A DNA stretch of 60,651 nucleotides, counting the filler, from Hausera hauseri (taxonomy: Eukaryota): NCBI GenBank assembly GCA_046269625.1. It is 11 parts of 11 records of this genome, joined end to end, with 100 filler letters (N's around TTAATTAATTAA, not from the genome) between each part and the next. Parts side by side here need not be neighbours in the genome. Positions count along the whole stretch, not along the records: positions 50,280 to 54,686 come from JBJURY010596222.1; 10 more parts are not named here. The stretch is one strand, 5' to 3'. Each line of letters opens with the position of its first letter. Positions within the stretch are counted from its first letter, which is position 1. The position numbers and the translations under genes were made by a program. Positions 405-55,600 of this stretch are shown piece after piece. The notes below the pieces were generated by a model. That model had not been told where the DNA came from, did not search any database, and saw only the letters and a program-made list of their open reading frames with translations.

Positions 405-867
405 ATGAAAGATTATCATAACAAACGAAAGTGTCTTTTTACCGAGACGTATTACAGCAATCAGTGCAGGCTACAATGTGTTTTCCCATGTCAATACGAA
501 AATTTCGGACAGCACAATCAAATGCATAAAGACTGGGGTTCAATTGGCGATTCCACCGGGTTACTATGGCCAACTTTTATGGAAAAGCGGACTGGCAAAG
601 CTCGGACTGACGATTGTGGGTGGTGGCGGTGTCATTGATTCAGATTTTCGCGGTAAAATTAAGGTGTTGCTGGAAAACCGATCCGGGGAACCGTATGCTT
701 TTTCGAAAGGTAGTGCAATCGCACAATTCGTTTTTCTTCCCTGTGAAGAGGCGGAATTCAGTATAATGTCACCGGAACAATGGGGATTGTTTTGTTTCAA
801 TAAAGCAACACGAAATGAACGCAAAGAATTTGGGTTTGGTGATATAGACAAAACCACCTATGTTTAA
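405..867 (+). pseudogene. dut: Trimeric-type dUTPase, 1-nt frameshift near the start
   Basis: All five motifs present: LPRRITAISAGYNV (in frame upstream of ORF 478), KSGLA, GVIDSDFRGKIKV, AIAQFVF and ERKEFGFG. Confidence 0.9.
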
Positions 868-2480: not shown

Positions 2481-5400
2481 TTACCTCAAACGCCAATGTC
2501 CATACGTCCAACTCTTATTTCGCCTCACCCACTTTCGCTTGCCACCGTTGCATGACAAAGCAACCTTTTTATTTGTGACGATATACAGCTGGTGCTCAAT
2601 CGATCGTATGGTCATTTAAGACAAAACAATCTCAGTCTTCTCCGTCTTTTTGTCCATCATAGACACGGCGATAATTACCGTGACATATTTCCATCTGTTT
2701 CAGCTGGATGCCTTTTGCCCGCATTTTCGGCCTACAGTCTCTCAGAAGACTGTAACACTTTGGGTGCAAAAATATCCATTCCCTCTATTAAATCCGGCCT
2801 TCACTTTCGTCCTTGAAGCAGCCGATTTTGTTTGTTATCGCGCTGTTTTACAGTGGATGGTCTGGTTGGTAGTTGGACGTGTCCACTTGTCCATCTGACA
2901 TAATTTGTCGGAGCAGCTGGTCTCAATTTGTTTTTCAGCTCAAGGAAGAAGCTGTCTGTGTCACCGGCAACGATACTGATCTCACAGACGCCGCCGCCAC
3001 CACCTAACATTTGCCGGTAACGTGTCAAGTCGCGATACTGGAGCTCGTACATCCGAAACTTGCTCAGGTCCAATACCACTTGTCCGATGTAGCTTGGCCG
3101 GTTCAGTACGATTTCTTCCCTGTTAAGAAGCACGGCGACCGATCCATCGGCAATATGCATTGACCGCCGAAACTGCGCATTGCTGGTGTACGTAACCAGT
3201 CGTTTTTCGTTGTTGCACAGGCGCGCGTTGAGCCGCTTCTTCAGATTTTCCACTGTTTTCCCGTACAGTGAATTGTTTTTGAACTTGTAATAGTCCTTTT
3301 TGAACTTTGTACAAGCTGCAGCTTGTTTCCCGGAATTTCCATTAATGTACGCCTTGCATATCGGCGCCTGATTGAAGCGGATTGCACGATGCAGCTGTGT
3401 GACGCGTATACCGAGCTGCATATAAAACTGCAGCAGACGCCAATAAACCACGTAATTCGATTTGGGTTCATGCGTCATGAGCAATTTCTTTACTGTGAGC
3501 CGCCGGGTAGACATTGACTAATTGGTGCGACAGGCAGTTCATCCAGAAAGTCATGCAGCTCATCCGGTACAACGAGATCAACTTCCATTAGGTAGCCGAC
3601 TGAGCTGCTTTCTGTCGTGTTTTCTGCTGGCAGACTATCCAGCAATGTATCCAGTTCTTGGTTGTCCATTGTCCATTCAAATGAACCGTACGGCAAAGGT
3701 TACGAAAGCGCCCAGCCGTACAGGTTATTAACATCGATGTACAGCATTGACGTTGTATTATCGTCACCACTGGTTACGTGATGCTTGTTGACAAATGTCA
3801 TGCCGCCACGAATGCCAACGTCAAAAACTCGGGTCTTGTAGCAGCTCAATGTCCCGATCCAGTGACATTAGTGCCGATGCTCAACTCATTCCCGGTATTG
3901 AGTAAAAGTTGAGCGGTTCCAACCTATATTCCTCCAACGCTTTAGCCCGAAATGTCTGAAACGCATCGGCTAATAGGTACACATCGAGCTTTAGATACTG
4001 AAGCATGTAGTTTAACATGTTTTTACAATCGAGCACCGTCCAAGATTCCTGTGGTCTCTGATATTCATCTTCTGTGATACCTGTTTATCGCGACGGTAAT
4101 TCATCTGTTGCCCGGAGTCGCTCATATGACACGGCAAAGTCATACGGGAATATGCCTTTGCTGCATGCAATATGTGTGGGGAACTGCGTCAGTGTTAGCG
4201 GTACATCAAACAAGGCATTTACGAGCTTTGCTAGCGACTCATTGAGGAACTGCAATGAGTGAATAAATCGTACCTGAAACCGGTTTATGCGTGCCGATAG
4301 GGACAGGTACTTCTCCATCGTTGTTGGGATTATGAATAACTCTCAGTGCGAAAATCCGTTTATGGCCCATTTTAGAATATGGTGACAGTCATAACCCGTG
4401 AAGTTATGAAATATCACCGGCAGGAATGGCCGCACCCGTCTTGCCAAATTACATGCGTTGCATGCATGCTGCCAAGTATCGAGCGGTAAAATGGTCGTGA
4501 TCCGGTACGAGCCGTTCCGGTAATATTTTGTGGTGGCACAGGTAACATTCATCGGTGACTGCAAACTTCAGGCGTTCATCTTCATTTGTCCAAATCAGGG
4601 GTTTTGTGCTGTAATTGCGATATCACGGCGCGATTTCCGTTTCTACTATTGTTTCCAAACGCTGCAGGAAATCACGCACATAGTTCCAGTCGTGAAAGGC
4701 GTAATACTGCGGCTGACCGATCGCTTTTATTGGGACAATCAATATACCAACGGCTATTGGAACGTGTTTTTGATTATAAACGTTGTGCCGTGGTAGAATT
4801 GCCTCAATATCGGCATATACCACATATGCCGGACTGTCTGTTTTTGACCAATCTGTAAACCTGAGTTCCTTTTTGACGGGCATGACATACATTGTGGTTC
4901 CCGATAAATTTTGTCTGAACAGAGTCACATGTTTCTCCCGTGATGTTTTTGACATGAATCCATGCAGACATACAGGATACCATTTACATTGTATACGCTT
5001 TTGGACAAACTGATGGTGAACCATGTTAAGTAGTCTGTCCAATTCGGTTACTGCAATGTAGTGAAATTTATCTACTTGCTCCAGTAATAACAAATTTACT
5101 ACTGAGTGACCATTTGAGTTCCGACTTCGATAGAGTATATCTACATGAGGGTTTTTGTAAATTTCTTCATCCGCCAGTATTTCTACGACTGTGTTGTACC
5201 GAAACACGTTGATTGCCAATGTCGGATTACGTCGTTCAAAAGCCGGAATGGATTTCAGTTTCATCGGCATCCTGCTTTCATCAAAATCCAATTCGGAAAA
5301 ATATTTCTGATACTGTTTTGGACGAGGTGCAATAAGTCTGTCCACTTCGTCATATTTCAATACCGCCAGAATACTGTAAAGAAAAGGGTATTTACCGTTG

Positions 5401-6032
5401 GTATTTTTTACATTCACTATCGCCAGAGACTGCTTCAGAGCTGCAGGTGTCGGCATGAATGATCGTCCAGACAAATATATCATATCACTCGACTTTATTA
5501 TGGTAAAGCCGAGAGTGAAAATTAGTATAATTCGCTATTCACTACCCTTTTTGGTGTAGTTGACGATTTTTTCCTCGATCTTTTCACCTACGTCGGCAAT
5601 AAAATCTTCAGAATATGGTACGGCTCAATGTGACAAATACCATTGTTTCCTGTCACCTTCCAAATTTTCAAATTCTACAAGTGCATTATATTGCACTTTG
5701 CAGTGGTGTTGGTTTTGTTGGAATTTGGCCACCTCCATTTCCAATTGGTTACGCACATGAGCAGGTACATCTTTCAGTTGCGTTGCTGTTTTCGCCGTCA
5801 TGTCCACCTAACATCTGTTCAGGTCGTACTTGACTGTAATGTTGGGAATATTGGCCTCCTGTTCTTTTTGTTGATGCTGTTCCTGCTACTTCTGCTGCTG
5901 CTGATATTGCTGGGTACTGTTTTTGATTAAGTCATCAAGACTTGTTGAGGCCTGACGTTTCCTACTGGTTGTTGTTGTTGTTATTTTTGAAGGGGTGATG
6001 CTGCTGCTGTTGCCGCTGTTGTTGTTGTCCAT
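2481..6032 (-). pseudogene. polB: Protein-primed DNA polymerase B, Polinton type, with Endonuclease-VII-like insert
   Basis: Motifs GRSFMPTP..AIVNVKN, VVYADIEA, CNACNL, PVIFHNFTGYDCH, KGIFPYD, KFKNNSLYGKTVEN, AGDTDS and C-terminal IRSIEHQLY..KVALS..KR..TYGHW. Many stops and frameshifts. Confidence 0.92.
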
Positions 6033-34049: not shown

Positions 34050-34678
34050 TTGTCAATTTTATGAATTACTATGCAGATATAAATCGATTATTGCCCAAAG
34101 TGAACAGGATATAGGTAGAACAAAACCTTAAGGTTAACCATTCCATTAAAAAAGAAACCTGGTGCCAATGATGAAATTGATTTGGAAAAGCAAAAGATGC
34201 CTAAATGGCACCCATCGCCTCATTCACTAGGGCCCGAAATAACTAAATAGGTAGAACATATGTTTAAGACCGACATAATACGACCAAGTTACAGATTTTG
34301 GTACTCACGAATACTTATGGTCAAAAAGAAAGGCACCACTAAACGTAGATTCTGTATAGACTGTCGAGCTCTGAACACCCTTATGATGAAAGATTTATTC
34401 CCACTACCATCAGTAAAGGAAGCATTAGACAGATTATCAGGAGCAAAGTGGTTTACCGCGCTGGATTTACAATCAGAATACTGGCAGGTAGAAATCGGAG
34501 AAGACGATAGTTATAAAACAGCATTTAAAACGCACGGCGAAGTCTACAAATTTAAGATTATGCCATTCGGTATAACAACCGGCCCAGCTATCTTCACCAG
34601 AATGATGAATAAAATGTTAATTGGACTCGATCACGCGTTTGCCTATCTAGATGATGTAATGATAGCATCAAAAACAGA
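34050..34678 (+). pseudogene. pol: Gypsy reverse transcriptase, truncated by the linker
   Basis: DIGRT, IIRPS, RFCIDCRALN, FPLP, FTALDLQSEYWQV, KTAF, MPFG, AYLDDVMI. Confidence 0.93.
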
Positions 34679-37700: not shown

Positions 37701-38704
37701 CTTATCATTGATGGTGTTGATTGTAAGTTGTAGTGCCGCATTTTCGGCGCGTAAATGGTTCAATTGGTGTTCGACAGATGTATGACGTTGATTGTCGTCA
37801 GTCGTGATTGCAGCTGATATGATGGGCTGTGATTGTATTTGTAAAACTTCATGTGCTTTATCGGTCAATTCAGCTAGCTTATCTAAGGCTGTAGAATCTT
37901 CAACTACGGTAAGTAAAGTTCTAATTTGAATGTGTAATGCGTTAAGGAAATATCGTCGAAGTAAATCAGGGTTGTGTTCCTTGGTCACTCCTAGAGTACG
38001 TAAGCCAACAAGGTACGTAAGAAATCACTAGGTTTTTGTGTCCCCATTGCATTTTCATTAAAGAAGCGTTGTATTATCGAATCAATTGATGGTTCTTTCA
38101 GTTTTAATACAGCATTGAGCAATTGAGTATAAAGGTCAGGGTGTTGAAAGATGTCCAATAAGTTATGGATTGGGGCCTTTATGGAGTTTGGCAGAAGGTA
38201 AAGTAGATTATGGGCTTTGGATAACGAGTCTGTAATACCGTTGGATTGTAATCAGCGTTGATGTAAGTGGAGCCAAGTTTTGCCAGAATTTTCATTCAGA
38301 GCAATGTGGAGTGTAATTGTGGAATTTTTGTGAAAAGAGTTAGATTCGGCTGATGTAGGTGGATGGTTTGATTTGGGATAGTAAAGAGTGAATTTGGGTT
38401 TTGTGGTCACCTTATCTGTGATGTCACTGGTTGGTGAGGAAATCATACCGCCGCGGATTCTAGGGTGAATGTGTATACAGAGGTAGTATTGTGAGGACAT
38501 GATGTATGGGAGGTCAGTTAAAATGAATCCATTGTGAGTCAAATAGAAGTCATTGAAGGCGGTAGCTTTATGAATGAGATCATATAATTGTATTGTATCG
38601 ATACATTGTGTTATATGAGCGGTATGTATTAATTTATTATTAACAAAAAGGTGGATGGAAAATGACGGTGATAAACAACAAGCTGGGTAGTGTGGTATAT
38701 CCAC
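34779..38704 (-). mobile_element. CsRn1-like Gypsy element (UBL-gag-protease-RT-RNase H) with an internal RT duplication
   Basis: Gag MGTQKPSDFLR, LDKLAELTDK; CHCC motifs CYYHNKF..ANKC..GC and CIYNAKF..ARNC..GC; FLIDTGA; RPCGDYRQLN, MPFGL, PYIDDIL; TTDASN, PLEFFSRKL. Confidence 0.9.
38447..38656 (-). other. Ubiquitin-like domain ending RIRGG, directly N-terminal to the Gag Met
   Basis: IHLFVNNKLIHTAHITQCIDTIQLYDLIHKATAFNDFYLTHNGFILTD...LCIHIHPRIRGG|MISS. Confidence 0.75.
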
Positions 38705-38794
38705 ATATTTTGTCTCGTGTCTTGTAGCTGTTGAGTGAGCCGTTGAAAACGTGGTTCTACCCCGACCGGTCCCAATTATCGAGACAAGTTTAAT

Positions 38795-40271: not shown

Positions 40272-41015
40272 TCATTTCAAAACAAATTGGGCTGTTTTAA
40301 ACGTGAATCGTTTCCCGTATAGGTAATGGTTGAAATGTTGACAGAAATAATACATTGCCTGTAGTTCTTTCCGACTTATACAATATCCTTTTTCACGGTT
40401 GTTTATTGTGTGTGATCCGTACTTAATTACTCTCGCGCCACAAACTATCTTTCTGTGAGGATAATTTATCTGTAGAAATAAGGGAAACATAGTATTGGCG
40501 GTGTGATTAGAGCTCTTTTTATTGACTCCAAGGCCTCGTTACATTGCTCCGTCCATATTAGTTTCTTGTTATTCAGTCCGCATAGTTGCTGCAATGTCTT
40601 CGTCTTTGTTCCGTAACCTTGGATAAATCTTATGTAATAGTTGCAGATCCCTAAGAAACTTCTTAAATTCTTGACATATTTTGGTTTCTCAGAGGACTTA
40701 ATTGTTTCCTGCTTTGATGGGTCTGTCTGTTTCATCTTGTCATTCATTATATTTCCTAAAAATTTTACTTCTTTCTTGAGGATGTGACATTTCTCTGGGT
40801 TTACGCTGAGACCTGCTTCCCTGATCTGCTACAATACCTTCTCTAGTATCCTACAATGCTCTTATACAGCCTTAAAAATGATTAGTATATCATCTACGCA
40901 TACCACTGTTTGTTCAATGTCCCATAGTACTTTATTTATTAGTTCTTGGACGGTGCCCGCGGCTGCTGCTATACCAAATGGCATCCTTTTGAAAGAGAAC
41001 TGTCCTAATGTGGTG
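40272..41015 (-). pseudogene. pol: Gypsy RT-RNase H fragment
   Basis: FKRMPFG, AGLSVNPEKC, LRSFLGICNYY..FI, ITPPILCFP, REKGYCISRKELQA..FNHYLYGKRF. Confidence 0.88.
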
Positions 41016-41017
41016 CC

Positions 41018-43620
41018 CATAGCGTTGTACAAAAAAGAACTATACTTTTAGACCATGTGGTGACTACCGACAGTTGAAGAACTTGACCATCATGTATGCC
41101 TACTCCTTACCACTCATCAAGGCCATCCTACATCGCCTTAATTCAACTACCATATATTCGATTATCGATTTAGCCAAAGCATACCACCAAATACCGGTGG
41201 CACCCGAATACATAGAAAAAACCGCTGTCACTACTCCTTTTGGCCTCTATGAGTACCTGTTTATGCCACTCGGCTTGCGAAATGCCGCCCAGACTTTCCA
41301 GCAACATGTCGACTCAATTCTCTCAGATTTTCCATTTGCGCACTCTTACATTGATGACATTCTAATTGTTTCGTCTACGGTCAAAACACAAGGAACACCT
41401 TCGCGCAATATTCCAACGCCATCACCACCATAATCTCCAAGTCAATTTCGACAAATGCCATTTTTCAAAAAACGCATCAACTTTTTGGGCCACGTTGTTT
41501 CACCAGACGGCGACTCTTCGCAACCAGACCAAGTTGAAGCCCTTAAAAATATCCAGTTACCATATACGACCACCGAAATGCGCAGCTTCCTTGGAACACT
41601 ACACTATGTATGTATGTGCATAAATATGTACCATATTGCTCCGAATTGACAGCACAATTTGCACACTTAAGCGGTGGCAAAATATATTAGCCAATCCAGT
41701 GGACACCTGAGTTGGTAGACAAATTTGATAAGTTACGAGAAGGAATTAAGACCCAAGCCTGATGCAGAACTCATCCTTACTACAGACGCTTCAACCACTG
41801 CGGTAGGTGCTGTACTCTACCAGGTCTACAAAGGAGAATATCAACCGCTAGAATTTTTCGCTCGCAAGCTAGATACTCAACGTTCGATCGATAGTTATTG
41901 GTCATCGTTCTTGCTTTAAAGCATTTCTCCCACCTACTTGTCGCTCGCCATTTTACCATACAAACCGATCACAAACCCTTACTTAACATCATGACTATGA
42001 AACATCCTTCACACTCCAAAAACGACAGATATCATACTTTTTGACATTTAACTTCGACATAAAACATATTAGCGGGTTTAATAATTTAGTTGCTGATTTT
42101 TTATCTAGGTCGATTAGTTCGATTAATTTTTCACCGATTTTTACACAGGTTTAACTTCAACAGAATTAGCCACCTTAAGACATGTTTAATTCTTTCAAGT
42201 CTTGCACAATTGTTGATGGCGTGGCTTTAGACACTTCCAAACCAGGTCATCCCATAATAATTCTCGCACCATCATTGCAAAGGCAAGCATTTAGTAGTGT
42301 ACATTCGCTACACCACCCTGGTGCTAAAGCCACTTCTCGTTTACTCCATGGACAAGTAATATGGCCGACAATGCGTTCTGATGTGCAGGCATCGGTTAAG
42401 GAATGTGTGGCTCGCCAAAAATACAAAACAACTAAACATTTAAAGCCACAACTATTCCACTTCCCCTTCACATCGCGTTTCGAATCCGTGCATATCGACA
42501 TCGTTGACCCTGTTCCTCCAGACAACGGTCATCAATTCATTCGCACCATGATGGACCGTTCCTCGCGATGGCCAGAAGCCATCCCTCTGCGGAGCACGAA
42601 CACCGATACCATAGGTGACGTTTTCATTCGCACATGGATTAGCAGGTTTGGATCACCTCGCTTCATCATCACGGACCAGAGTCCACAGTTGGAATCCAAA
42701 CTGTTTAAATATCTTGTTAACCGATTAAGGATCCATCACATACATACTACGCTTTAACATCCCCAGTCGAATGGCCTCCCAGAACGCTTCCACCGAACAT
42801 TGAATATGTCACTAAGAATCGTTGCAGAGTCCAACACTAGTTGGACGAATCTTCTTCCGTTTGTTCTGCTTGGCTGGCGGGACACTCCGTCTACTTCTAC
42901 GGAATGCTCACCTACCGAAGCCTTATTCGGAGCTCCTGTACTATCATTGTTCGAACTAACTGCCCTAGCGACACACCTTCAGATGAAACGATACGGGCGG
43001 CGCAAAATCACTTCGGCACGGTCAGCAAAGATTTGTTCTGCAGGATACTTCACAAAGACAAAGCATATTTATCCGAAGACTTGTATTCGTCAAAATTCGT
43101 ATGGCTAAAAAATCAGACGCCCTGCGGTTTTCAGCCGCGGTATCTGTGGCCCTATAAACTGATACAGCTGCATTCACATAATGCTACTATCTCTAAAGAC
43201 GGCAAAAAATTTACGGTACATATTACCAACCTAAAGCCCGCCTTCTTCGTCGACGACACTGTACCAATCGACACGTCAAACCCTTTGCTCACTCCTAAAC
43301 TTCCTTCTATTCCTATTTCCATCGCTACACCTGTTCCACCTCCTCCTTCTGCTCCTAGTTCTGCTTTATCATCTTCCACGCCTTCTCCTTCTGTTCCTAT
43401 CCGCCTTCCTATCTCTACCATTACCTCTGTTTCATCTTCTACTTCTACTCTTCCGCCTAATACATTTCCAATTTCCACGACAACTTTCGTCGCCTCCTTC
43501 ATCCGCTACTTCACCTTTTGTCACTCCATTGTTTTCTAACACTCTCTTGAGTGCCTTTAACCATCCGTCTCCAACAATCTCTCTCCCTCCTTCACCTTCT
43601 TCTTCTCTTCATTCTGACTC
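41018..43620 (+). mobile_element. Gypsy pol (RT-RNase H-integrase) closely related to the 34779-38704 element, with an S/P/T-rich tail
   Basis: RPCGDYRQL, IDLAKAYHQIPV, YIDDIL, TTDAST, HSLHHPG, VHIDIV, DRSSRWPEAIPL, ITDQ, HPQSNGLPER, WPYKL. Confidence 0.92.
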
Positions 43621-46600
43621 GTCTTTACACGATACAACAATTACTACAAAATCTGACAAATTTTTCCCCAACTTTAACCTATGCTAGCAAATACCTCGCA
43701 TGCAGACAAACCACGCAGAGTCACATTTAGCATGTATAGCAGGGAAAAATCAGTAGAAGGCACCCAACGTCTTGTTCACACTAAGACCAGCTGACACAGA
43801 CGCTTTCCGTTTGGCGATTTTTTTTACCGTCTATTTTACCCTTCATAATTTCAACCTTGCTACGGGGGAATGATGTTGTGCCCACTGCGGCCGGTGCTTT
43901 TGGCCCATTTGGTTGGGCACGGCCGGGCATTCGCTGTTGCCGCGTCGGCTTAATAGTCGGGTCCAACTCTCCGCCTTATGAATTTAATCCGTCGAATTAG
44001 ACGATAAGATTATCCTTAAATCAGAACCAATACATACAATACTCATCTTTAAAGATGAAATCTATTCCACTCCATGATATAAACAGTAGCCGAGTAATTG
44101 ATGAGCCGTGCCTTTCAAATCACTGCATCATAAGACAGCGGCATAATCCCAGACAGAACGTTAATCCTTTGATGCCAACCCAAAATGATTCTGAAAGTGC
44201 TACGACAAATACAGATTTATTACAGACATACCTTCAAAATCTCATCACGAAACCTAATCGTCACAATGTTTCGAAAGACAATAAAATAACAACGCAACAA
44301 TTTAATTCAAAATCTTTCTCAAAGAAAGAAATAAGTCAGTTGATATATTTCCACAATTCTTCCCAACTGTATGAAAATGTAACAGTTCCAACATTAGAAA
44401 ATTTTGTTTTATCGATAAAGTATCAATGTTCTCTTTCCCGATGTGATATTTATTCATTTTGGTTGACCTTTCCACACCACTAAACAAATCATCGGATATA
44501 TCGATCGAGGAAAAATCATTTAAAAAGTCCACAACAGAATCCAATCCGAACTGAGTTCCGTTGAGCCGATTCAACGAACTTTATCCGCCGAAACTTTCCA
44601 ACAATTTCATCTTATTCTTTAACAACAACGTGGAAATTAATTGTTTAGTTTACTAATGACAGTGGTTTAAAGATGTCTTCAGTTTGTCATGTAGTGCTGA
44701 TAAAAACAGTCGTTGTCAAATATATAATTCTTGATCTTCGGTCGCAAGATTTTCGCAATTACTTTATCATCTATATCCTCAAAGTCAGACTCGAAGTGTT
44801 CGAATTTAAAATCATCCTCGTTAGGAAGCAACATCTACGGCGGTTTAGAAACTCGTTGGCAGTTCTCAGTCATTTCATTAAGACCCGATACCACAACCAG
44901 TTGTACTTTCTAGCCAATTCATCAAATAGCCATATTTATCGTTGTTCATTGGTGTTTAAAATGGTCGATCAGCATCCGTTGACATGAACAAATGGTAGAC
45001 AAATTTGATCTTCCTCGACAACACTCTTATTGTCACATTCCGATAGAGGCAGTGAAAAATATGTTTTCTCAGTGACGAATGGGCAATGTTCTTAGAAACA
45101 AAAAAATCCAAACATTTCAGATGTCGTTCCAAGTCCAAATTTCGGCTCAAGTTTTTCGTCTGATGATCAATAATAAAAACATGTGAGCCATAATAGTTTT
45201 CATACCGTCGATAAAATGTCTTCCAATCCACTCAAATGCCAACGAACAGAAGCCAGAAAACGTGGTCAAAGTGAAATAAAACGAGTCGTTGTGGTGTTGC
45301 CGGATTTGTTGACCCTTTTTGAGACATTTTTTAAAAGTGTACATAATGTTTTGTTTAAATAAAACACAATTTTGCATGTTCAATTTGATTTGACTTTAGC
45401 TTACGTCATATTTTTTTCTTCGAAGAAATCGTCTTTTGCTATTATCAATTATAACTGTCCATTTTTTAAGAATTTGTATCTCGATTGATTTTGCAACTTT
45501 TTTATACCAAATCGTTTATTGGATTTGGTCGATTTGTTGCGTACATATATAAGCATAACTATGAAAATTTTGAATTATTTATTCGAATACCATATTCAAT
45601 TTGATCAAATGATTTTAGTAACAGAATTCGAAATAGAAGGAAAATTTCTGTACGTTACCAGTTTANNNNNNNNNNNNNNNNNNNNNNNNNNNNNNNNNNN
45701 NNNNNNNNNTTAATTAATTAANNNNNNNNNNNNNNNNNNNNNNNNNNNNNNNNNNNNNNNNNNNNGTCAGCTGCTAGGTGTTGTAGTTCTTGCATAGGGC
45801 CTAAATTCATGATTTTACATTCACGCATGAAAGTTCTTCTTATTGTTTCTTGTGGTCTTCCTCTGTACTCGTCTGATCTAATATTCTCAAAGAAAATAGT
45901 GACTAAGTAACTCCTAAGGCGCCCTATCGAAACACTTTCCCCTCATGATAATTTTTAAACGCAGTACGCAAGTACACACCCGTTCGTCTGAACTTTGATC
46001 TGTCAGCATTTCTCAAGCCTGCTAACATATGATAAGCCGAATGCAGGCGGTTAATTTTCAAAAGAAACGCGTTCGGGAATGACCGATCATCACAACCATA
46101 CCTAACATTTATGTTAGCATGCTAACGTTGAGGAAATAGGCACTAACAGTATTGTCTAACGCTGCCTAACAGCGGTGTTTTTTTTCCTTTTGCAGTGGAG
46201 AGCTACTGGCCGTAAAATTCTCGTCGTTTACAAGATTTTTTAATTTCGTGTTTTAAATTTAACATTACATATTATATTCCTTTTATTTTTATATAATCCT
46301 TGTTTTTCTTTTTGTCAGCACTGCTAAATTTGTGAACATGGATGGCCGCCACTGGTTGCAGTCTATTTAGTATTATTTTAAGCATGACTTTGCTTGAGTG
46401 GTTGATGAGACTAATAGTGCGATAATTTTGGTACAGTTGCAGTAACGGGGTGATTATGCATTGAGTCCAATGTGTGGACCATTCTTTGGTATTTCATATT
46501 TTATTACAAATCTGTGTCAGGATTTCAATCATTGACTCTCCTCTAGCCTGAATACGTTCGGCTGGTATGTTGTCAGCTCAGCAATCTTTCCTTGTTTAAG

Positions 46601-47536: not shown

Positions 47537-49312
47537 AATTTCAGAAAAGTTAGTCAGCCCACAAAAGATTCCATATATACAGCGACATGAAGCAACCCCA
47601 AAGCTGTCCAGTTAGTAATTTGCTAACCAGGACCGACTTCCTTATAAAAACAACCGGATTATTAAACATGAGTCAAATTTGGTACTACGACCATAAAAAA
47701 CATGTGATAATTGGATTAAAAAAATACTTCCTTCCGGATTTTCCTTCAAAAGTGCTTAACAAATAACACCGGAATGGATACCTATACTTATTACACATAT
47801 ATGCTTATGGCAGCTTCAAACATATTATCATACTCAGATGTTGACATGTATCTCTAATAACATTATGAAGTCCGAGATAGCGCTAATAAATAGTCATTAC
47901 TATCTCTGTTACCAAATTAAAACCTTTTAATATAAGAATATTTGTTACACATAATTAATTTACTATCATTACCATACTCAAATGAGAGCTGATGTAGTGG
48001 AGTAGTCAGTGCACGTGAGTAGTATACTGAGTCATTAATAGGTCGAATTTGCCTGCAGGGGCATTATATAAAATGTATACCCCTGCAGGGTCTGTAATGT
48101 ATAGCGCTAAGAAGAAAAAACCCGGAGCAGCCTGGTGCAGGGCGGTCACGGGGGTCATCGGGTCACCGGGCGGACTCGGGGTCACCGGGCGGGTTGCGTG
48201 GTCGGCAAGGGGCAGGGGTGCTATACACCGGCCTTTCTATAGCGCAAAGAATAAAAAAACGCTGGTGGCGTTTCTAAAGGGTTTTGGTGGCCAAAGCAGT
48301 GTCCATCACGCCTATTTGGAGCTAGCTGTAAACTACTGAGACTAATCAGTGTCCATAACAACTAGTGAGACTTTATAACCGGTCCCGCCTGGTTCCTTGA
48401 CCGAATCTGTATGAGTCCACCACCACTAGTGATCAAGACATTCGAGCTGTAGGGAGCAAGGGAGCTGTAAGCGATCAAGACCTTTCGATAAAGGGAACCT
48501 TGGCAGTGCCCGAAACATTCATTCAAGCCTTGTTTGCTCTGTGGAGCTATTGTAAGGCGAAAAAGAAAAAAAACCATCATCACTGCCGTCCTCGGCTTAG
48601 GCTGTATTTCATCACTTCGACACACATCCCCGTAGAGGAGCCGTCTCCGGGATTTTGCCGCCGCCCCCGCCGCCGCCAGGGGGAGCCACCGTTGCTTACT
48701 TTCAAGCCCTTCTGATTAGCATGGGCGTTAATATTGAGAAACTTTCCGAAACTGTAAGATGAGCGTTGGGTCATCACGAGCGAAATCTTCTTAGACTGTA
48801 TTTTATCAGCATCATAGCTGTGAAAGAGCTGGAACAAGAGAACTGTAAGCTTAGTAGTGCTCAAGACCTTCAGGCGAAAGACAAGCAGTGATCAAGCCCT
48901 TCTTAGAATGTAATTTATCATCATAGGCGAAAGAGACAAAACACTGAGCAAGATCGGCTTAGACTGCATTTCATTCTAGCAATAAACCTTTACGAGCACA
49001 TAACATTTTCGAGATCATAAACAACTGACTCATAGCAATTATGACAACGTATATAACAGAGCAATTTTGCATGCAGCTGTCACAATCCGAGGCCCAAGAA
49101 ACCAATAATTAAGCCCTATATTTACCGAAATGCAAGATTTGTAATAACGATATCATTTGACTGTCACCCACGTGAAGCAATCTCTGATTTTGGCGAACAA
49201 AAATCGATATGTGCTGTTATTAACTGAAGCAAAACTGTTAACCAAAAAACCACTCGATTTTTCTAATAAGAATTTTAACAGAGAAAGCTTCTTCCTTTTT
49301 CGTTTAATATGA

Positions 49313-49980
49313 GACTGACCGAATTCATCAACAGCACGCCTTGTATAAGCCTTTAGTGAACAACCACCATCATAATCCGGTTGCTGTATAGTGAACAAAT
49401 CCTGCCGATACTTTTAAGAGACAAATAGAGTCAATAAGCGTATAAACCTTTTATAACTTTTACTGACCGAAACCATCAACAACACGCCTTGTATAAGCCT
49501 TTAGTGAGTATCCATCATCATCATCATCAGGTGCCGTATAGTGAACGATTCCTGCCGAGCCTTTTAAGAGACAAATAGAGTCAATACGATTTTTAGGGTT
49601 ATTAGCAAACGAGAATTTCAGCTTCGGGTGGTAGGACTTTAGTGAGCATCGATCATCATCACAGTCGTGTAGTGATTGAGAACTTCCGACCAGGGGAGAA
49701 TGGGAGCAGAGGATGTTGGTGGGGACGTAAAGAAGAAAACAACAAGGGAACAAACGTGGACCAAGATGGCGGCGGTAAAGGGTAAGCAATGTAACGTCAC
49801 AAGCTTGTCACAAGCATTATGTGCCGTGGCGTTTAGTGAACGGGTATTTCCGATACTTTTAAGAGACAAATATAGAGTCAATAAGGCTTTTAGGACTATT
49901 AGTCACCAAGACTTTCATCATCAGGTGGTAAGACTTTAGGGAACAGCTATCATCAGCATATCCCGTATAGTGAACGAAAC
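49313..49980. repeat. Degenerate ~150-bp tandem/modular repeat
   Basis: CTGACCGAA..CATCAAC..CACGCCTTGTATAAGCCTTTAGTGA...CTTTTAAGAGACAAATAGAGTCAATA at about 49313 and 49462; partial copies at about 49627, 49833 and 49924. Confidence 0.75.
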
Positions 49981-50319
49981 CTTCCAAAACCTCCATCTTT
50001 GACCTGTGAGCCTAGTGGGACGATACAGGTCTCTTCTTAGGAACGGCAATAGAGTGTAGCGGATCATCATCATTAGTGCCCAAGACCTTTCAAGTCATCC
50101 TCTAGCTCGAACTAAACTACCTCCAATATCCTTAAGATATGCGACTTTAACAGAAAATTTACCCCTTCTATGACCAACTNNNNNNNNNNNNNNNNNNNNN
50201 NNNNNNNNNNNNNNNNNNNNNNNTTAATTAATTAANNNNNNNNNNNNNNNNNNNNNNNNNNNNNNNNNNNNNNNNNNNNATCATTGAGTTAAATCTCGAT
50301 TAATTTCATTTATATTTAG

Positions 50320-51602
50320 ATCTACCGGAATGTATGTTTTGCAGAGCCATTATCACTGAAGTGTACAGATTGACACCATGCCTACATATGGTCTGTTTAT
50401 TTTGTATAGAACAAGTTCGAATACGAGCCCATCCTACACCATACTGCCCTGTCTGCACATATGAAATTAAATACTGTATTCATCATAGTGCATACCCATC
50501 TGACGCTGACCAATCACTACTAGATGTCCCAACCTTCGATGTCATCGAACCTACAGATCATACTACCTATTACTACACCTGGAATATATCCACCCCTTTT
50601 TCTATTCCGAATTTTCAATTGCACATGTGTTGTTTATGTCAAAAACCTAATAGAATAACCTATCAATTTAGTTGTTGCAATGCCGAGTACTGTGCTCATT
50701 GCTATCAACTAGAATCCCATCATCGATACTTAATCTGCAGCATATGTAACTTTTGCCCCCAATTTATTTACGCATATTTCCACCACCCTAGAAGAGCTCT
50801 CCTTACCATTACTAACACACCAATTCCCCAAATACTTCCGACAAGATACTTCCGGTTAGAACAACAGGCATCAGTTAGAATAGAATTCCCAATTCATAAA
50901 TTTGACCCCTCTATAATAACCAGACTACCACCGATTGTTCTTCAAACACCTTTACCTCACATTAATGTTATGACTCTTTTACGACAACCATCTTCAATAC
51001 CACACCCACGCTATCATCCAGAACAAATTACTAGACCATTACCTGAATTGCCAGTACCAGTACCTACAATAATACCCACACCAGCTATTTCTTATAGCCC
51101 ACCATTACCAATATCTTTACAAGAAGATTGGTTTCCTGTCTACAGCAAATGTCCAATAGACCTTATTTCTGACCTAGCCCCTCCTGACTTATGGGCAACA
51201 CTACAATCTCACTACTATGACCAATTTCCCACCTACGAATGTACTATATGCCTTACCGAAAGAATAACAGTAGTTCAATTTCAATGCAACCACAAATTAT
51301 GTGCAACCTGTTTCAACAAACTTCGATCCCAATCTATCAAATCAATCGATCCGGAAGATGCTTTACAGATGACCTTTCAAAACGGCATTTCTTGTCCATA
51401 TTGCCAACAACCATCAGTATACTACCACTTCTATTACACCTACGACAACCGAACCCAAAGACTATGCCATTGGATGAACCCCGTGAACGATGCGACACTG
51501 ACAGTCAAACCCAGAAACCTCAGTTTCATTGATGCCAGTACTCAGAGTGATCCGGAGGACCGAATCCTTTTCAAAGGGGGGAGAAATGTTGAGACGCTTT
51601 AA
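50320..51602 (+). CDS. Intact triple RING-finger protein in the 3' accessory position of an LTR element
   Basis: RING1 ECMFC..CLHMVCLFC..CPVC, RING2 CCLC..CCNAEYCAHC..CSIC, RING3 CTIC..CNHKLCATC..CPYC. Pro-rich linker; no stops over 422+ codons; acceptor-like ttatatttag ends at 50319. Confidence 0.82.
51573..51586 (+). promoter_or_regulatory. Polypurine tract
   Basis: AAAGGGGGGAGAAA immediately followed by TGT, and preceded by GAGGAC....TTTT. Confidence 0.8.
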
Positions 51603-52653
51603 TTGTTAATTGACAGTGACACTTTAATCGAACTTTTCCTTTAATTGTTAATTGACAGTGACACTTTAATCGAACTTTTCCGACAACCTTTTGACAGTGT
51701 ATACTTTTATGATAAATGACAACAATTCACAACTTTGGAATACAAATATTTCGAAACATGTAAAGCCTCCCTGATAGGCGTTTTTATAAACTGTTGGGTA
51801 CGGATTATGTGTGAACCCTTTTTTCGTGTTACAAACTTAATTAAGAAAATACAAATTCGTATCTAATCGAGTCGACCTTTAAATTAAAATTGAGATTATC
51901 AACGCTTAGTCATACTAAAACGAATTTAATTTAAAAAATCGAAGTACAATCTGGTTAGAAGTCAAAGATCACACTTAGTCAAATTTACTAAAACAAACTT
52001 ACAAATCAAGGTACAACATCTTGGTCGGAGGCTGAAGTTCACCAGACCGACGTTGTTGTGTGAGCCTGAAGTAAATCCGAAAATTGAATTAAAAAAATTA
52101 AAGTTCGCCATTAAAGTTCGTCGAATTGACGTCATTGAATGAATTGGTAAATTAAATTGACGTCATTAAATGGATTTGTAAATTAGATTAACGTCATTGT
52201 ACAAATTCAAACCAAGTATAAATAGGCAAAGTATATCGATACCATAATTATAAACACAAAACAAAACTTTTTAAGTTACGATCTGCGATTGCATCGAGTA
52301 TTTACGAAATTATCCAACTTACGTAGGTAAGTTGTTAGACGTTTGGTTTGTTCATTTTTTCATCTATGTCTCAGTGATAAAGAAACTAGCCTCTACTGTA
52401 TCTAAAGTTCTGGTCAATATAAATTTCTGTCTTTGGACGATTCAAATTAGCATTATTGGGTTAAACAAAAACTATACACTTAGATATAATGGCCGAATCT
52501 CGTGGAAATGATACGATTAATGGACTAAGTAAGCAAATTTGCAATTATTTGTTTATTATTATTCGAATGTCACTGTAATATATTTTGCTATTGTAAACAT
52601 TGTTATACAATAAAAGTTATTTACTAATAAATATTGTTGTCCGGTCTCGATCA
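51587..52653 (+). mobile_element. Putative 3' LTR
   Basis: Starts TGTTGAGAC after the PPT. Contains a 42-bp tandem duplication (51597-51680), CRE repeats, TATAAATA at 52217 and AATAAA at about 52609 and 52626. The end GTCTCGATCA is an imperfect inverse of the start. Confidence 0.62.
52122..52224 (+). promoter_or_regulatory. Three 31-bp repeats with CRE cores, followed by TATA
   Basis: TGACGTCA at 52127 and 52158, TAACGTCA at 52189, TATAAATA at 52217. Confidence 0.7.
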
Positions 52654-55600
52654 GTGGACGTTACATACAGCAAACTTAACGAAATTTAGAAAGAAAGTCG
52701 ATTTACTGGTTGAATGTACACATACCTCGAATGACAGATGAACCGATAAACCGATGACGTCCTGCTGGTGAGAGATATATATATGATCTACTTTGAGTGG
52801 AACGGAGACCGATGGAAACGACCGAATAATGATCATGCATTTCGATGACGGATGATTCGATCAATGACGACGTCTTGCAGATGAAATATACAGATGATTT
52901 ATGATAAAGAATATTGAAGGAAACCCTTCAAGGTCTAATAGTTGATGTTATGGATGATAATGATTCATTAAAAGGGTTCAATAGGAAAATGAGCGTATAT
53001 GTGTGGATTAAGACATCAATTTATTTAACCAAAGGTTTTTTCCTTTTATTTGTTTTTGCGTATTTATTGAATCATAAGACGTTTGAGGATTGTCGTTGAC
53101 AAAGATTCCTTCTCCCTGATGTAATCTGAATCTAAAATTGAAAAGGCGTTGTGGTTGAAGGTTTCGACGATTAGCTGATTAATTGAGTAATCAATGGGCG
53201 TATACCCTGACACTATTGTCCCCATGATAGATTTTTATCTTATATATCAAACAAAACCTTCATGCAAACTTTTAGCAACACGATTTAAGGGTTTGAATAT
53301 ATAATCAGATAACCCCACGATAATGGTTCAATATATAAAAATTTTGAATATTTGTCTTATGAGGTGCTGACTGTCTAATTGTGCACTATATGGATTGATA
53401 CATGGATGTATAAAGAAGGTCAAGGAAAGTATAGCATTTGTTGAGAGTATACCGTGGAACATCGAAATTATGTGTTTAAAGTGATAACGGAATTAGTTTG
53501 TTGTTTGAGACTTGTGTTATGACAGGTAGATTTGGGGTTAAAATCTACGACCCATATGTATGTTTATATGAGAAACGGAGGATTGTCGATCATAATGCTT
53601 TTAACGAAATTAGAGGAAAGTGTAATTTTTCCTTGAATGATTTCATTTATAAAAATAATATCCGTTGAATAACTTAATTTCATTTGACAAGTAATAGTTT
53701 CACCGAATAATTTAATACTGCTTCAAACGATAAATGTAATTTTCTTTGAATGATTCGATTTCATTTAATAATTTAATTCCTTTTGATAAAATGTTAGCTT
53801 CCCTGAATAATTGATTTAACATCATAAAATAATGATTTCACTTATAATTATAAACTATATAAAAATGAATAGTATCAGCTGCTTGTGAATTCCATGTTTT
53901 ATTTAATATAAGATTTTATTTATAGTTGTATGCAAGATTATAATATCATTAAAATACCTTATATCTCTGTATGCGAAATAAAATTGAAGAAAGGTACTAA
54001 TAGTATCAAAGAGATTGATGACGAACAATTAATGGAGAAGTATGGATACGATCATCACAAGGAATTATAGATTGAGAATACCCTATATATTATTTATTAT
54101 TATTAATAACATAAGCTAATCATCGTTGACTTGAAAGCTAAAATATAAAACCAATTTTATCATTATGGACAATATTGAGTCTAACTAATTTCGGGCCAAG
54201 CTTGGTAGAGATATTAACCCTACGTTGGTTTGGTGGATATAGAAGGAATAATATACAGACAGACCCGTCATGAAAGGAGGATATATTGATCATACTCACG
54301 CACCTTTCAGAAGAATGAGACGTAATCTGGGTGTAGATAATTTAGAAGTCGCTAGAATTCAGAAACAAAAAAACAGGATTTCCCAAATAAGGAATGATTC
54401 TATATGTTAGGTATCATTTAAGGTTGACCTTAACAACTTCTATACCATTAACAGACCCAACAATCTAGTACCGACCTCACCACTATTTCTTCGTCTTGTG
54501 AGTTCATCACCGCTAACAATACCAACTTGCTAAAAGTATCCACCATTACTAATAGGTACCTGAAACCCTTTTTCGATGGTAAAAAATGTGCGATATTCAT
54601 GACTATCTAATGAAAAAGCTTGATTTCTTCTCGGGGTAGAAATGTTTCTTTAGTTGCTGTTGTATCTGCCTTCCTTTTTCTGCAAANNNNNNNNNNNNNN
54701 NNNNNNNNNNNNNNNNNNNNNNNNNNNNNNTTAATTAATTAANNNNNNNNNNNNNNNNNNNNNNNNNNNNNNNNNNNNNNNNNNNNTGGCGTCCCTACTC
54801 ACAAAGCCGTACGCCTAGAAATGTGAAGGCACTATCACTTCACACCCACACGGTCTGCAAAGGTTATGGGACTTTACCAGTTACGTTTGTCAGTAACTGT
54901 GTTTACTTCTTCAGCCGTAGCCTGCGTGGTCACATGTTTTTCGTCCACTCTGATCCTGTATTCGCAGGGTATTAAGGAATTACTCCAGGACAGTTTAAAG
55001 GCATAATGTGAAGGACCGAGTACTCAAGTGATGGCTCAGAGGCATAGCTGTTGGGAAGCAAGGTGTTAGGTCTATATTGTTTGTCTTTCAATAAAGAAAA
55101 GGGATAAGATCAGACATTTCTTTGCGCGTTAAGTATAAAATTGAAGTTAGAACTTGACAATCATCACTATGGTCGACTATACCAGTTCTGTTGTAACGGA
55201 TAATTCGTCTAGTACGCCCGGGATGATGCTCATTCCTGACCAGGCTATATATCTTCACCCCGAGCTCTAGCATTCTGGAGTTTAATGCTGAATCTCACTT
55301 GCCAAGGTTCTCGAACCATCTATCTCTCTTGTGTGCATTGACTGAATTAGCTTCATATATATTTGTCCGTCTGAAAGCAACGCTGTTGTGAGAAAAGGGA
55401 CATTTTGTTGAGGATGGTCTTCTAATAAATGGATCTGAAATCAAGTACACGCAGCCAATAGAAGACGGTACGTCAGTGGCGGAGAAATAAGAAGTTGTGA
55501 CTGCGGTCTGTTCTTGATGCAGATAATAAAGCAGTCAGTTAAAGGGGTCTGTACAGTAGTTTCCCACGCATTTTCTTGAAAGTCACAGAAGCAAAACCCC

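Follow-up and report, generated by a model that had tools for sequence, protein, structure and literature searches.

A highly repeated element of Hausera hauseri, likely an LTR retrotransposon of the Ty3/Gypsy type, carries an intact open reading frame (the RING ORF) that is under purifying selection and ends inside a terminal repeat. On balance, we favor the reading of this frame as a spliced, non-env accessory gene that would provide a Gypsy-like element with an E3 ubiquitin ligase of its own.

The DNA that we analyzed (the window; 60,651 nucleotides, filler included) consists of 11 contigs of H. hauseri joined by N-TTAATTAATTAA-N spacers. Because the contigs were joined artificially, adjacency across a spacer is not to be assumed. 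The RING ORF sits on contig 50280-54686 (JBJURY010596222.1), which begins 24 nt 5' of the ORF. Family searches of the other contigs revealed decayed Gypsy-type pol, a viral fusion glycoprotein, a dUTPase and a piece of a DENN-domain gene, as expected for a eukaryote rich in repeats.

A long open frame ends within a terminal repeat

The RING ORF occupies positions 50304-51602 on the plus strand and comprises 432 stop-free codons. It was the longest of 28 window ORFs of at least 150 aa (runner-up, 308 aa), and the other two plus-strand frames over the same interval contained 21 and 25 stops, versus none in the ORF frame. When the contig was shuffled 300 times, the longest open frame was 178 aa. 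Thus, the original prediction that this is the longest uninterrupted frame of the window was borne out. An in-frame TAA (50301-50303) lies directly 5' of the frame. At its 3' end, the frame runs through a polypurine tract (51573-51586, +) that is followed by TG at 51587, and the conserved head of the 3' terminal repeat (TGTT-N8-TTAA, 51587-51602, +) provides the stop codon, which ends at 51602. The passage of the frame through the tract and its stop 16 nt inside the LTR were therefore as predicted. In the window, 51573-51586 was the sole purine tract with a G-run followed by TG, and a looser pattern was present at two sites.

We identified the relatives P0002 and P0003 among 678 candidates, and P0002, P0006 and P0007 as all three matches among 1.84 billion representatives, where no host-like relative was found. 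The cluster members P0004, P0005 and P0008 were added to the family, and all of these relatives are ENA proteins. Identity to the window protein over the aligned part was 65-66% for P0002 and P0005, 59% for P0003 and 57% for P0006 and P0008, and P0007 shared only the last 50 residues. No long relative was detected among the 1.84 billion representatives by a search free of a length limit, and no shorter relative by a search covering 30-74 aa. All five proteins whose C-terminus reaches the tract-TG junction encode it at their end, in two frames. P0002, P0005 and P0003 terminate right after the TGT codon of the TG head, and the window copy and P0007 proceed four codons further in another frame and stop at an identical place. 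Because the last residues of all five proteins are encoded by the purine tract and the TG head, the RING ORF is fixed to this junction throughout the family.

The frame is repeated and selected

Ten runs (ten studies) contain part of the RING-ORF stretch, none of which is recorded as RNA, and the best four of the ten were compared (X1-X4). In X1, which may be the window's own source, 7,374 contigs aligned to the 4.4-kb RING-ORF contig, mostly at 90-99% likeness. The summed contig depth in X1, which is a sum over overlapping contigs and not a copy number, was 13,325-45,572 over the RING ORF, 35-144 over 51603-52631 and 14-58 over the flank. In X2-X4, which represent three more organisms, the RING ORF was covered, the LTR body was absent at 85% likeness, and the flank was present at most in traces. 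Given the several-hundred-fold step in depth between the ORF and the flank, the RING ORF is not a single-copy exon. The depth, together with the relatives that end at a shared junction, excludes a single-copy host exon, and the proposed tie of the ORF to a repeated element is upheld by the junction, which is common to all five C-termini and all four runs.

The 30 listed differences within the RING ORF (415 further rows stand in the same table) included 21 synonymous ones, versus 9.2 expected for the same substitution types, and none of 100,000 simulations reached 21. Thus, the RING ORF is under purifying selection. The indels among those listed for 50280-51602 were located at 50290, 5' of the frame, and at 51567, at its very end (12 further rows). 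This selection operated during the multiplication of the family, so that the element itself is the likely beneficiary.

The flank of the window copy showed features of its own. The interval 52926-54395 occurred in X1 in two versions, with depths near 13 and 6 and ~13% apart in one stretch; the 2:1 depth ratio could indicate a triploid or hybrid animal. Further downstream, a 32-base TGTTAGG...TTAACA unit (54405-54436, +), similar to the LTR head, adjoins a minus-strand integrase fragment. The high-depth stretch 54453-54686 was rejected as part of the RING element; it is an integrase fragment, on the minus strand, of another high-copy element.

Copies share the head of the repeat

The original prediction held that the LTR from 51587 onward is repeated and linked to the ORF. 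This was found for the short head but not for the 1-kb body, which is low-copy and is not the common LTR of the family. Loose ends from 51590, four bases into the repeat, were present in 49, 8, 1 and 1 contigs of X1-X4, respectively, and their mutual agreement was low (0.52 in X1). Therefore, what most copies have in common is the tract plus a short head, beyond which they continue into other sequence. One X1 contig linked the junction to 51755, and others matched the LTR body at ~93%, so that a few copies share the 1-kb body. There was no second copy of 51587-52653 within the window. The copies that share ~16 bases of LTR head may have LTR bodies that can be exchanged, or their LTRs may be very short. 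By eye, four loose-end rows retain TTAA at the window's distance from the junction, and in two of them four bases of the head recur in inverted orientation, which suggests a repeat that closes at base 22.

The LTR-like body of the window copy (51603-52653, +) has promoter-like parts and an imperfect inverted end. Its features include a 42-nt tandem duplication (51597-51680), two TGACGTCA sequences at 52127 and 52158, TATA at 52217, AATAAA at 52609 and 52626, donor-like sites at 52327 and 52529, and an ATG at 52489. The inverted repeat at the right end (52653) matches eight of nine head letters only when one gap is allowed, and this end was not among the five best ungapped inverted-repeat candidates.

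Variation at the 5' end of the frame points to splicing

The interval 50280-50319 (+) is likely the 3' end of an intron. It contains branch-like TTAAT (50300-50304, which includes the TAA at 50301-50303) and a pyrimidine-rich tract followed by AG at 50318-50319, which agrees with the acceptor originally described. The accessory-protein coding exon would then extend over 50320-51602 (+), with phase-1 entry if spliced at 50320; the frame is open from 50304. The first cysteine of RING 1 (TGT, Cys10, 50331-50333) lies just upstream of the ATG (50334-50336), again as described.

In the acceptor region (50280-50430), contigs of the four runs carried 18 substitutions at a frequency of at least 3%. 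The sole listed substitution 5' of the AG was at the -3 base, which is T or C, with YAG retained. The AG, the TAA at 50301 and the ATG at 50334 were free of listed differences. A 1-nt indel at 50290 was present in all four runs, and loose ends occurred before 50299. Three differences were listed between the AG and the ATG. All three are synonymous in the ORF frame (P = 0.045 under random transitions), one of them falling on the third position of the Cys10 codon, compared with one and none in the other two frames. Further, 12 of 17 listed differences in the first 80 coding bases were synonymous (5.6 expected, P = 0.001). The retained YAG and the exclusively synonymous variation from AG to ATG are as in a phase-1 coding exon and support the splice acceptor. 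Expression of the RING ORF therefore likely involves a start exon further upstream that is joined by splicing to the AG at 50319.

The LTR body offers a start exon in phase with this acceptor (ATG 52489, 13 codons, donor 52529), and 10% of 20,000 shuffles equaled it. Because of this fraction, and because most copies are without this LTR body, the LTR start exon is a lead only. By analogy with CERV of Caenorhabditis elegans Cer1, a gag-leader donor would be at least as likely a source of the start exon.

The encoded protein has two RING domains and a third cysteine cluster

Clusters were called as RINGs using the Pfam zf-C3HC4 cut-off of 21 bits. RING 1 (C3HC4, aa 10-51; 50331-50456, +), whose first Cys is one codon 5' of the ATG, scored 23.6 bits, and RING 3 (C3HC4 with a long loop, aa 313-367; 51240-51404, +) scored 26.4 bits. 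For the middle cysteine cluster (cluster 2, aa 109-151; 50628-50756, +), there was no match to a RING family in Pfam or to a RING sequence in PDB. Thus, clusters 1 and 3 of the three RING-like clusters originally proposed passed the cut-off, and cluster 2 is only weakly RING-like; the "triple RING" is two established RINGs plus one likely RING. The zinc ligands of the protein were kept in each of four lineages wherever covered, including all ten Cys of cluster 2.

Cluster 2 has the spacing C-x2-C-x11-CC-x4-C-x2-C-x11-C-x2-C and two further invariant Cys. We take this spacing to be reminiscent of C4C4 RINGs, and the cluster is likely a RING variant of that type. Its profile match to RING 3 was equaled by one of 150 column shuffles, and by eight of 150 with Cys fixed (P ~0.05). 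Structure models were too poor for use (mean pLDDT 27 for the full-length protein and 57 for cluster 2), and fold searches gave nothing above background. In the RBR check, cluster 2 was without an IBR match, cluster 3 scored as an ordinary C3HC4, and the His near the IBR-like position fell at either of two adjacent sites, neither of which is invariant.

We examined the E2-contact residue and linchpin positions as defined in the available part of PMC13061254. RING 3 has Ile before the second Cys in all four proteins and Pro before the last pair, and its linchpin after the last Cys is Arg in all three relatives and Gln in the window copy. At the E2-contact position of RING 1, the window copy has Phe and three relatives (P0002, P0004 and P0005) have Glu; its linchpin position is Lys in four of six relatives and Thr in the window copy. 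RING 3 would therefore be the best candidate for the catalytic RING of the predicted ligase. When the family profile was compared with PDB, the top sequence matches were RING domains, mostly E3 ligases, although weak (best E = 0.0097). There was no PHROG or Rfam match. We consider it fairly probable that the RING protein is active as an E3 ubiquitin ligase.

Between the middle cluster and RING 3, a proline-rich linker (aa 201-282; 50904-51149, +) showed the lowest conservation within the protein. Near the C-terminus, a D-x-S-T-Q-[T/S]-[D/E] motif (aa 410-416; 51531-51551, +) is present in all five proteins that reach it, as TQT in four and TQS in the window copy. This candidate LC8/DYNLL site agrees with the LC8 motif, as given in part of PMC3078936, save for the basic residue at -3. 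Many TQT peptides fail to bind LC8 (PMC6607443, in the section available). Some RING ligases require dimerization (PMC13061254, same part as above), and a Drosophila transposon-silencing complex is dimerized by LC8 (PMC7861614, in excerpt); a connection of the latter to the RING protein would be a lead and no more. Binding of LC8 and dimerization through the candidate motif is conceivable, although rather doubtful.

The element that carries the frame

The features that suggest a Ty3/Gypsy-type carrier are the polypurine tract that abuts a TG-headed repeat and the many diverged copies. Further, the strand of the RING ORF is C-rich and G-poor (C 0.267, G 0.131), as is that of the Gypsy pol on contig 7 (C 0.253, G 0.145); apart from the pol of contigs 7 and 8, this composition is unlike that of the other coding stretches measured. 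We infer that gag-pol probably lies upstream of the RING ORF, which would thus occupy the env slot. In JGI metagenomes and IMG/VR, no locus related to the RING ORF, by protein or by junction motif, was detected, and none for the closest pol either. None of eight relatives of the contig-8 integrase was matched to the contig of a RING relative, in a comparison in which the match is indirect and the query family is perhaps the wrong one.

An envelope protein was considered for this slot and rejected. None of three proteins has a TM segment or a furin site (R-x-K/R-R), their highest 19-residue hydropathy was 1.33-1.34, and there was no match to a fusogen family.

Other contigs of the window contained additional mobile-element sequences. 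On contig 6, 29739-30260 and 30233-32944 (+) encode a broken Monjiviricetes-type fusion glycoprotein (PF24664, 26 and 51 bits). It lies upstream of an RT piece at 34251 and is preceded by an ORF that appears SUMO/ubiquitin-like by eye, and this env-before-pol order is reminiscent of Burro elements. At 38252-38794 (-), an 80-residue stretch upstream of and in frame with a Gypsy gag ends in RIRGG and is followed by Met; it resembles a ubiquitin-like domain with a cleavage motif and is without a Pfam match. If the RING ORF belonged to the family of this Gypsy gag, splicing could fuse the ubiquitin-like domain to the RINGs. Within 40800-45665 (+), a Gypsy pol has a long Pro/Ser tail, with its end near 43793; the contig continues 3' of this point for 1.9 kb, with a 160-codon ORF matching no family and without a purine tract. 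A long piece of a DENN-domain gene (17535-19634, +; dDENN match) is frameshifted and apparently without introns, and is possibly a retrocopy. A dUTPase and fragments that by eye resemble a Maverick/Polinton-type protein-primed DNA polymerase were located at 409-867 (+), 2801-5534 (-) and 11409-11981 (-), and degenerate repeats with ~148-nt spacing at 49300-49960.

Discussion

In the explanation that we prefer, the element would have an accessory gene at its 3' end, with the RING ORF as the final coding exon, and an upstream start exon spliced to the AG at 50319 would give rise to the RING protein. RING 3 would most likely bind the E2, and RING 1 and the middle cluster could serve as additional modules for E2, dimer or substrate. 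Partners may be bound by the proline-rich linker and the conserved tail, and the TQT-type motif would perhaps dimerize the protein via LC8. The predicted ligase may then remove or modify a host factor that limits expression or transposition of the element. That this target is a host silencing or restriction factor, as the original prediction had it, is a tentative proposal that we hold to be possible rather than probable. Herpesvirus ICP0-type RINGs degrade restriction factors. Taken with every component, that is, a Gypsy-type family with its own multi-RING ligase in the env slot, spliced from an LTR or gag-leader exon, dimerized by LC8 and destroying a host silencing or restriction factor, the scheme is unlikely to be correct throughout.

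The main rival retains the spliced accessory exon and makes its product a zinc-finger regulator without ligase activity, either CERV/Rev-like and acting on the element's RNA (its export or the balance of its splicing) or a scaffold for chromatin or proteins. Among the proteins of this slot, CERV has been studied best, and it is a cysteine-rich factor for RNA export that is made by splicing (PMC10309623, in part); further, RING 1 is without a constant E2-contact residue, the middle cluster fits no RING family, and many predicted RING E3s are unconfirmed (PMC13061254, in part). Nevertheless, we regard a non-ligase as unlikely, because two domains score above the C3HC4 cut-off, RING 3 retains the Ile before the second Cys, the Pro before the last pair and, in all three relatives, the Arg after it, and the top PDB matches of the family profile, although weak (E = 0.0097), are RING domains, mostly of E3s. 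A different rival concerns the carrier, which could be a non-autonomous LTR element that has the RING gene as its sole cargo, is without gag-pol of its own and is mobilized by a Gypsy partner, so that there would be no env slot. The searches of JGI metagenomes and IMG/VR and the matching of integrase relatives, which gave no link to pol, would fit such an element, as would contig 8, on which a Gypsy pol is followed by at least 1.9 kb without RING similarity. However, third ORFs are usually laid out in this way, with a conserved acceptor just ahead of a 3'-terminal frame that stops at the terminal repeat, and the strand composition is like that of Gypsy pol; on these points, which are indirect, we consider this rival somewhat less likely still.

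We consider two further alternatives less likely again. Since no difference is listed at the ATG (50334), an unspliced start there is possible, with a first finger of seven ligands, and three relatives are called from the equivalent Met; frameshifting or read-through from upstream would also avoid splicing. The synonymous differences between AG and ATG speak against the first version, since all three are synonymous in the ORF frame only and one preserves Cys10, and the in-frame TAA at 50301, at which no difference is listed, and the indel at 50290 in all four runs speak against read-through, so that expression without splicing appears improbable. A host RING gene exon, or a recent retrocopy, could lie beside the LTR by chance, and this is the least credible of the readings and largely refuted; it conflicts with the several-hundred-fold depth, the shared tract-TG junction at which five proteins end, and the 1.84 billion representatives, among which the three matches were all of the RING family and none was host-like. 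We retain a spliced accessory E3 ligase that serves the element as the preferred reading.

The likeness between CERV and the RING ORF is in layout, that is, a spliced non-env ORF in the 3' slot. CERV has one candidate C4 finger and acts in RNA export, whereas two C3HC4 RINGs and one more cluster are present in the RING protein, and the position behind pol is shown for CERV but is inferred for the RING ORF (PMC10309623, as far as its available part describes CERV). There was no similarity to CERV among the 1.84 billion representatives, in which the three matches all belong to the RING family. The ORF3s of Juno and Vesta elements in bdelloid rotifers are captured non-env third ORFs with typically spliced messages, as proposed here for the RING ORF; however, in the part of PMC5408684 available they encode DEDDy exonuclease, GDSL esterase, coiled-coil or transmembrane proteins rather than RINGs, and the word "RING" is absent from its main text. 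According to an excerpt of PMC6431247, the planarian Burro/GYPSM1 elements are Gypsy-like, have thousands of copies and contain an AIR1 RING-type finger, MATH and SUMO-like domains, and these ubiquitin-related domains were proposed to interfere with host ubiquitination. The same excerpt places the Burro domains in or upstream of a 4,900-aa ORF1 polyprotein, whereas the RINGs described here have an ORF of their own at the 3' end, which runs across the polypurine tract. Membership of Burro/GYPSM1 was rejected, since the RING ORF stands alone at the tract-LTR junction and has an upstream stop. Orchid Gypsy elements with a captured demethylase indicate that such ORFs can be active enzymes (PMC9289625, in part).

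The C3HC4 pattern of its two domains makes the protein similar to RING-HC E3s. The nearest PDB sequences were Arkadia, MEX3C, TRAF6 and an equine herpesvirus RING (E 0.01-0.2), and the Atlas leads were C3HC4 clusters, many of them from giant viruses and all below 0.9. The protein differs from RING-HC E3s in its three zinc clusters per chain, its proline-rich spacer and the lack of a relative outside the family. In the open-access literature (a scope outside which Repbase, supplements and subscription journals lie), we found no stand-alone multi-RING third ORF at this position. Third ORFs of the spliced, non-env kind are known, and so, separately, are ubiquitin-related domains in Gypsy elements of flatworms; their combination as a stand-alone multi-RING ORF is, on that literature, apparently new.

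Accessory genes of animal retrotransposons that act against host control have mostly been inferred, rarely with an enzyme class. A RING protein that is selected and family-wide gives a direct handle on whichever host factor restrains this very successful element. If the scheme with every component were true, LTR bodies would be swapped freely behind a fixed 16-base head, and the RING protein would be a transposon counterpart of viral counter-defense RINGs, which would account for the very large expansion of the family.
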